Shown piece by piece: positions 29,618-30,357 of a stretch of 49,055 nt of DNA. Under the pieces are notes generated by a model. The model did no database searches and was not told where the DNA came from. It was given only the letters and a program-made list of their open reading frames with translations. Origin of the DNA: an uncultured Burkholderiales bacterium (GTDB lineage Bacteria > Pseudomonadota > Gammaproteobacteria > Burkholderiales > Burkholderiaceae_D); assembly GCA_937872165.1 (NCBI GenBank), contig CALMOR010000062.1:1-49055 (forward strand), read 5' to 3'. A program made the translations under genes and the position numbers. The stretch's first letter is position 1. Each line of letters starts with the position of its first letter.

Positions 29618-30271
29618 TCAGCCGCGGCAGCTATTGGGCAGCCACTTCGCCTCGCTGGGCACGGTGGGCTCGCACTTCCACTGCTGCGGCGTCGCGCTGC
29701 CGGCGTCGGCCGCGTGGAGCGGCGTGCCGTCGGACTTGAGCGGCGTCATCTTCACCCCGGTCGTGAGACCCTGGATGTTCTGCGAGTCGGCCGTGATCAC
29801 GCCGTCCGGGTCCACGCTCATGCTCTTGAGGTACTTGGTGCCCTGGCCGACGCCGACGAGGCAGGTCCACGGCTTGGCCTGCGTCGACGTGCCGCCGTCC
29901 ATGACGTTGTAGAACTCCGTGACCTCCAGTCGGCAGGGCGCCGTCTGCAGCACGACCTCGGACATCTTGGTGCGCTTCGTGTAGTCCTGGTACGCCGGCA
30001 GCGCGATGGCTGCCAGGATGCCGATGATGGCCACGACGATCATGAGCTCGATCAACGTGAAGCCGCCCTGGCGGTTGCTGTCGAAGGGCATCGGTGCGCG
30101 CGCGGCGGCCGGCGTGCTGACGGTCGAGCTGCCGCGAAGCCGCGTGATGACGGCCTCCAGGTTGGCCTTCTCGGTGTCCCAGACCTCCTTGAGCTGCGCC
30201 TTCGTGTACAGATGAAACACGAGACCGAGACCGATCCCGATGGCAATGCCGATGATGATGTGGATGAGCAC
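29618..30271 (-). CDS. pilA: Type IVa major pilin with a 70-aa membrane-anchored N-terminal extension
   Basis: [33 protein letters not shown] prepilin signature with Glu5; C-terminal D-region Cys pair (WKC...LPNSCR); CAGGAGG RBS at GTG 30271. Confidence 0.93.
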
Positions 30272-30323
30272 GACAACCTCCTGTGTAGATGATCAAGACA
30301 GGCGCGGAAGTGCGCCGGTCGCG

Positions 30324-30357
30324 AGGATACTGCGCAAACTGAAATGCCGTCTAGCCC
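30324..30357 (-). promoter_or_regulatory. Promoter GGGC-TAGACG-N18-TATCCT upstream of the pilin gene
   Basis: GGGCTAGACGGCA and GTATCCTCGCG are identical to the element at 25361-25393. Confidence 0.65.

Follow-up and report, generated by a model that had tools for sequence, protein, structure and literature searches.

The locus at positions 29618 to 30271 raises the question why a phage carries a single gene for a type IV major pilin, and why this pilin is preceded by a leader of 70 amino acids that opens with a hydrophobic helix of its own. The analysis described below led to a reading with an even chance of being correct: the membrane anchor replaces the usual basic leader, and the host prepilin peptidase PilD frees a pilin that alters the host pili for superinfection exclusion.

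The Phage Genome and the Setting of the Pilin Gene

The window, i.e., the whole stretch of 49,055 nt that was analysed, comprises the first 49 kb of a contig of 56,795 nt. The ends of the contig overlap by 114 nt with 6 mismatches, and the contig is probably a complete tailed phage. It contains genes for a Mu-like portal, a DNA polymerase A and thymidine modification. The mismatches of the overlapping ends (window positions 1-115 and the end of the contig) cluster within about 25 nt of a tail gene and reflect either assembly noise or a variable stretch. The thymidine hypermodification cluster (9921-15370, minus strand) includes genes for a thymidylate synthase-like protein, an HD-domain protein, a 5-hmdU DNA kinase helical domain and an amino acid:DNA transferase.

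Neither an integrase nor a repressor nor further pilus genes were found among the 58 open reading frames of the window that were scanned, and the last 7.7 kb of the contig were judged by eye. Only one pilin match was obtained on the whole phage contig, and the earlier view that the pilin is unaccompanied by other pilus genes was thus borne out for the frames scanned. The gene occupies a variable slot between the primase gene and a gene for a DnaJ-domain protein; 0 of 27 primase relatives had a pilin within the stretches that were fetched, some of which were short. Capsid and terminase scans of viral contigs yielded 0 and 4 loci, respectively. By primase, the closest cultured phages are PW916 and AXL3, with 41-42% identity. 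Of these, AXL3, a virulent phage, uses type IV pili (PMC7504290), and by analogy with this relative, at just 41% primase identity, type IV pili may also serve as the receptor of the phage described here.

Another gene of the phage (26392-27327, minus strand) encodes a protein that has a hydrophobic stretch at its N-terminus and a PEP-CTERM sorting domain at its C-terminus (TIGR02595 above the cut-off, together with a weak match to the MHFG family). It is located 2.3 kb from the pilin gene, and because the host bin contains an exosortase, it could represent a second captured host-surface protein. A literature search yielded no example of a PEP-CTERM protein of a phage.

The Long Leader Is Genuine Coding Sequence

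The prepilin gene (29618..30271, minus strand) was recognized from its open reading frame, its family matches and its homologues. It starts with GTG and encodes a protein of 217 amino acids, a P-PilA with a membrane-anchored leader. Residues 1-70 form the leader, and residues 71-217 the pilin. The leader begins with a hydrophobic helix of about residues 1-19 (30215..30271, minus strand), which has a maximal 17-residue hydropathy of 2.59 and is predicted to be an N-out anchor. The remaining leader (30062..30214, minus strand) consists of a charged helix to about residue 47 and of a linker rich in Ser/Thr/Ala/Pro, which is predicted to be unstructured and ends with Gln-Gly-Gly at the predicted PilD site. 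At this junction the Q-G-G of the leader is followed by FTLIELM. The mature type IVa pilin (29621..30061, minus strand) has 147 amino acids, Glu5 and four cysteines.

The prepilin matched Pfam N_methyl and Pilin as well as TIGR02532 above the cut-offs (34.5 bits versus a cut-off of 16.3 for the latter), and no family in Pfam or NCBIfam matched the leader. Together with the fold model described below, these matches confirmed that a complete PilA-type pilin is present. The sequence-only reading had noted a C-terminal cysteine pair; the pair does exist, but it is not alone, as the cysteines at positions 113, 137, 200 and 215 make up two pairs.

A Shine-Dalgarno sequence, CAGGAGG (30277..30283, minus strand), is located 5 nt ahead of the GTG. 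Its calculated duplex with the anti-Shine-Dalgarno sequence has an energy of -11.5 kcal/mol and is stronger than those of all 19 other phage starts tested (+0.1 to -10.2 kcal/mol). In contrast, the internal Met61 (30091) has no Shine-Dalgarno sequence, and its duplex energy is only -1.7 kcal/mol. Both observations agree with what had been claimed for the two possible starts. The codon adaptation of the leader is 0.71, which equals the median of 196 windows of 70 codons from 18 phage genes, while the five other frames of the leader region have values of 0.27-0.53; the mature pilin part reaches 0.82. The phage-like codon use and the strong Shine-Dalgarno sequence, together with its absence at Met61, show that the leader of 70 amino acids with its own hydrophobic helix is genuinely coding, as had been proposed.

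A Promoter-Like Motif Recurs in the Phage Genome

It had further been proposed that the pilin gene has its own promoter at 30324-30357. A promoter-like site (30324..30355, minus strand) with the sequence GCTAGAC-N18-GTA(TCCT) is indeed located ahead of the prepilin gene; its -35-like box and the stop codon of the preceding gene overlap. With 8/12 consensus matches the site is below the threshold of a sigma-70 scan, but this candidate promoter belongs to a recurring phage motif. GCTAGAC-N17/18-GTA occurs four times in the window versus 0.08 expected copies, an optimistic chance figure because the pattern was derived from those very four sites. All copies are sense-oriented ahead of gene starts, and all four GCTAGAC sequences of the window lie within the full motif. 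The copy ahead of the pilin gene spans 30328-30355. The second copy (25365..25391, minus strand) is located 60 nt ahead of the start at 25305, the third (16547..16573, minus strand) ahead of the start at 16486, and the fourth (34149..34176, plus strand) ahead of the gene that precedes the large terminase gene. Because one copy precedes packaging genes, the motif cannot be used to date expression as early. No copy was found in the remaining 3.95 Mb of the assembly.

Similar sites were seen in a few related phage loci (L108-L110, L114, L117 and L118). The second gene behind one of the copies (15447-16238, minus strand) encodes a Lys/Ala/Pro-rich repeat that resembles histone-like proteins of the host.

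The Mature Part Is a Type IVa Pilin

A fold model of the prepilin was calculated from an alignment of 129 sequences and had a pLDDT of 89. It contains a helix from residue 2 to 47, an unstructured linker up to residue 72 and a normal pilin. The leader part of the model is less certain, because only 7 rows of the alignment cover it; an earlier model from 7 sequences was poor (pLDDT 57). The best PDB matches of the modelled pilin were type IVa pilins, type IVb structures had E-values of 0.26 or worse, and a viral structure library gave no match at E<=0.001.

In line with a type IVa PilA, the protein has a Gly-1/Phe1 cleavage motif, Glu5, a hydrophobic first helix of about 21 residues and a pilin head with a predicted C-terminal disulfide, the cysteines of which are conserved. 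The leader departs from this class, as it comprises 70 amino acids with a hydrophobic helix versus a short hydrophilic stretch of 6-26 amino acids. As expected for a phage pilin mimic, the gene is part of a phage genome and lacks an assembly system. Two other assignments were rejected. Type IVb/Tad pilins were taken to have a hydrophilic leader of 15-30 amino acids, a IVb-type first helix and clustered assembly genes, while the first helix found here is of the IVa type and identical to that of the host PilA, and assembly genes are missing. A Sec (class I) signal peptide would be characterized by a basic n-region ahead of the hydrophobic helix and a conserved A-x-A site; in none of the seven anchored proteins does Lys or Arg precede the leader helix, and inspection by eye revealed no conserved A-x-A. 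The hydrophobic moment of the leader helix is modest (up to 0.42), and therefore no coiled coil is claimed.

The Probable Host

The phage contig is binned in a genome of 4.0 Mb that has two tandem pilA genes, with a sigma-54-type site ahead of one of them and a PglL-type glycosylation gene behind. The same assembly contains genes of the PilD, PilS and exosortase families. Residues 1-30 of the mature phage pilin are identical to both chromosomal PilA proteins of the assembly (30/30). Binning alone is weak evidence for the host, because the phage contig deviates in composition and ranks second among 100 contigs by tetranucleotide distance. Matches to the family profile at E<=1e-50 were obtained in 7 of 14 genomes of the same genus versus 2 of 400 genomes drawn across the order, which supports this group as host. 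A named protein that is identical to a pilin of the same family identifies the family as Burkholderiaceae. From binning and pilin similarity we infer that the host is a member of the genus to which the binned assembly belongs. A crude scan detected no CRISPR array in the assembly, and short matches to contig C13 represent Lys/Ala-rich coding repeats.

Anchored Leaders Form a Small and Rare Family

The homologue searches revealed that the fusion of a membrane leader to a pilin is conserved. Six homologues have leaders of 61-99 amino acids that open with a hydrophobic helix, and in all seven leaders of the clade this helix begins at residue 1-6. Over 50 amino acids the leader is 45% identical to that of homologue P0003 and 33% to that of P0006, and in four of the six homologues the nearest Met is more than 15 residues away from the cleavage site. 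Gly-1, Phe1 and Glu5 are kept in 7/7 long-leader proteins, and Gln-3 in 5/7, compared with 155/171 short-leader pilins. All seven proteins lack Lys or Arg ahead of the hydrophobic helix and have 5-7 such residues after it. The last 12 leader residues contain 0-1 Lys or Arg in 7/7 anchored proteins versus at least 2 in 167/171 short leaders.

Among 180 pilins from two homologue searches, 171 had leaders of up to 19 amino acids, 2 had leaders of 32-35 amino acids without a hydrophobic helix, and 7 were anchored. A further screen, which flagged the gene of the window, covered 275 other distinct PilA-type genes: 60 viral genes, 42 from genomes of the same family, and, among the matches listed, 81 from metagenomes and 92 from species genomes. 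The alignment scans of the metagenome and genome collections had returned at least 604 and at least 612 stretches, respectively. No anchored leader was found in any of the 275 genes, including the 60 viral ones, among the matches listed. The best 150 representatives at 50% identity comprised 123 with short leaders, 17 with long leaders without a membrane helix, 6 without the motif and 4 with long leaders with a helix. These four were three known members and P0260, which is outside the main clade and has a leader of 99 amino acids with two hydrophobic stretches and a Met 19 residues ahead of the site; this may be an anchored leader of separate origin or result from an over-called start.

Lone pilA genes as such are common in viral contigs: 232 matches were obtained, and most of the 17 loci inspected were flanked by phage genes. 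A single-protein scan of viral contigs with the pilin described here yielded no relative, and a DNA pattern specific for the clade matched the window and nothing in the viral contigs, the other collected loci or the metagenome contigs. Records of cultured phages gave no pilin match at 1e-5 and one bacterial contig at E<=1, in a search that was insensitive because it missed published P-PilA genes too.

Extensions of other kinds were also observed. An HNH-like domain is fused in frame ahead of PilA in L062 (around position 6010) and in P0216; in these two records the G|F site is kept and no ATG start is present near the site. In L014 and P0220 a phage-type pilin follows a non-membrane extension, and in P0260 it follows the two-helix leader.

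The Anchor Was Probably Gained More Than Once

A tree was calculated from mature pilin sequences (48 rows chosen from 118). The seven anchored pilins form one clade (support 100/97) together with a single short-leader protein, P0008. The sister of this clade (100/95) is a short-leader pilin on contig G246:C3 of a genome of the same genus. G246:C3 is a phage contig with a terminase, a Mu-like portal and a capsid protein that is 50% identical to that of the window phage, the only such match in 14 genomes of the genus. Therefore, the pilin seems to have been phage cargo before the anchor was gained, and the tree also suggests a phage origin of the six homologues. On G246:C3 the pilin gene (L148, about 10039-10491) heads the packaging operon, and its stop codon overlaps the start of the next gene.

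P0007 and P0009 group with P0008 (97/86) and share a short motif. Behind the helix, their leaders have no similarity to those of the other five anchored proteins (z from -1.2 to 2.5). The simplest reading of this pattern is that the anchor was gained twice within the clade; alternatively, there may have been one gain with replacement and one loss. P0260 branches elsewhere, beside the viral pilin L012 (support 91 in a quick tree). Taken together, the anchored leader was probably gained more than once.

Possible Functions of the Anchored Prepilin

In the favored reading, the leader of 70 amino acids with its N-out anchor would take over the orienting role that basic leader residues normally have. 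The N-out orientation is predicted by the positive-inside rule from the lack of Lys and Arg before the helix and the 5-7 residues after it. This would produce a hairpin with the N-terminus outside, the leader in the cytoplasm and the pilin head in the periplasm, and thus the linker and the cleavage site would be in the cytoplasm, i.e., on the side on which PilD acts (PMC4471445, PMC10191384). Host PilD could then cut at Gly70, although the class III leaders that have been described are hydrophilic with 6-26 amino acids (PMC4471445) and no precedent for PilD cleavage behind a membrane-anchored leader was found in the literature searched. Once freed, the pilin would be incorporated into host pili and alter the surface seen by pilus-binding phages, which would lead to superinfection exclusion; the released membrane peptide of 70 residues might be inert or have a role of its own. 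The conserved head with four cysteines, the pLDDT of 89 and the type IVa matches argue for selection on an assembly-competent subunit and not on a bare membrane plug. Exclusion is the likely purpose by analogy with P-FimU, which is built into pili and blocks phages (PMC12952977). The sequence-only reading had suggested a decoy that re-coats or poisons the host pilus; such a role is plausible and would match the mechanism published for phage minor pilins. Two points run counter to co-assembly: without the basic residues near the site, cleavage could just as well be poor, and the time for re-coating pili may not suffice during a lytic cycle.

In an alternative that is possible but doubtful, the anchor turns the prepilin into a slow or uncleavable substrate, which accumulates in the inner membrane, occupies PilD or the assembly platform, and signals via its host-identical first helix to PilS to silence pilA, so that pili are lost and not re-coated; the route via PilS goes beyond those considered in the sequence-only reading. 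The basic residues beside the site are gone in 7/7 proteins, and the strongest Shine-Dalgarno sequence tested together with the high codon adaptation of the mature part suggests high expression, as would suit a tethered substrate. A PilS-family gene is present in the assembly, where a sigma-54-type site also precedes pilA. In P. aeruginosa, prepilins that are not processed lower pilA expression via PilSR, which results in phage resistance (PMC13170266, PMC6058289). A repeated gain of the anchor would also suggest a benefit beyond that of a short leader. However, neither Gly-1, kept in 7/7 proteins, nor the full four-Cys head would be required for a pure jam, and feedback at the level of transcription acts slowly for a lytic phage. 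Processing could be blocked more simply by a single substitution at Gly-1 or Glu5. Re-coating and a tethered block are compatible with each other, and they are joined in a bolder and rather tentative reading, in which phages of this host group repeatedly evolved membrane-anchored prepilins (at least twice in the clade, perhaps a third time in P0260) as a two-state exclusion device. PilD would act as polyprotein protease or timer; the uncut form would be a trap that shuts down pilus building via PilD and PilS, and cleavage would yield both a decoy pilin and another membrane protein.

Less probable than either is that capture simply placed pilA downstream of, and in frame with, a small membrane gene of the phage. 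PilD would separate an ordinary short-leader P-PilA from a leader that is a separate phage protein or a tolerated passenger. Leaders of unlike types (post-helix z around 0 between P0007/P0009 and the other five) and phage-type pilins behind other unrelated N-termini (L062, P0216, L014, P0220 and P0260) fit this unlikely explanation. It is at odds with the helix position at residue 1-6 in 7/7 leaders, which is more uniform than expected for random fusion partners, and a weak search among proteins of 27-90 amino acids gave no stand-alone copy of the leader (10 candidates, none of which scored). An end other than exclusion, e.g., pili that serve progeny or partner phages as receptor, or altered adhesion of the host during a carrier state, is quite improbable. 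It has a parallel in the haloarchaeal provirus SNJ2: filaments made of its pilins promote biofilm formation and serve a different virus as receptor (PMC12426801). The nearby PEP-CTERM gene suggests that the pilin is not the only means by which the phage modifies the host surface. On the other hand, no integrase or repressor is present among the 58 frames scanned, and a phage with replication and DNA-modification genes of the lytic type would have little time to profit in this way. Very improbable, finally, is an artificial leader, due to an over-called start or an assembly chimera. Translation from Met61 would leave a normal leader of 10 amino acids, and over-called starts are common, as most of the 17 long representatives without a membrane helix have a Met near the site. 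But the Shine-Dalgarno energies, the coding-type codon use, the conservation of the leader with P0003 and P0006 and the four homologues without a nearby Met all speak against a start at Met61 only. A chimera is unlikely as well, since one contig of a sequencing run, which may be the assembly's own source, spans the junction of leader and pilin without a joint or variant. Thus, this reading was largely refuted.

Comparison With Known Pilins

Phage-borne PilA, a point missed by the sequence-only reading, is already known (Sztanko 2026, PMC12952977) and common in viral contigs; only the anchored leader is unusual. The P-FimU and P-PilA described by Sztanko et al. (PMC12952977) are likewise phage-encoded type IV pilins without other pilus genes; they rely on host machinery, as the pilin of the window presumably would, and have their own promoter, the candidate counterpart of which here is the motif site. 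PilA-like genes are also present in virulent phages. Unlike the pilin of the window, the cases tested there are minor pilins of temperate phages. The P-PilA proteins in the inspected rows of its Table S3 have 59-65 or 127-157 amino acids versus 217 here, and its main text does not contain the word "leader" and mentions no membrane-anchored one. Literature searches, mostly without subscription papers, yielded no report of a membrane-anchored or extended prepilin leader. The SNJ2 pilins of Natrinema (PMC12426801) are also viral, and are processed and assembled by host machinery, but they are archaeal, proviral and the receptor for a second virus. Phage PilA mimics are listed in the literature, and no functional test of them was found in the literature covered. 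The window pilin, which keeps the cleavage motif behind a membrane anchor, is a natural test of PilD tolerance. As a full-length mimic of a major pilin with anchored forms and a short-leader sister, it makes the effect of the anchor on exclusion directly measurable.

Short-leader viral PilA genes (IMG/VR and the sister copy on G246:C3) are similarly alone among phage genes and differ in the leader, an anchored form of which was present in none of the 60 viral genes. The PilA proteins of Burkholderiaceae, which have a class III signal peptide (PMC4471445, PMC10191384), share the G|FTLIELM site, Glu5, the first helix and the four-Cys head. In contrast to them, the phage protein has the 70-residue leader with a hydrophobic helix and not 6-26 hydrophilic residues (PMC4471445), and its gene is neither accompanied by pilB, pilC, pilD or a glycosylation gene nor located behind a sigma-54-type site. 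After residue 30, the pilin is 44-49% identical to the closest short-leader homologues outside the clade and 33-35% identical to the two PilA proteins of the assembly.
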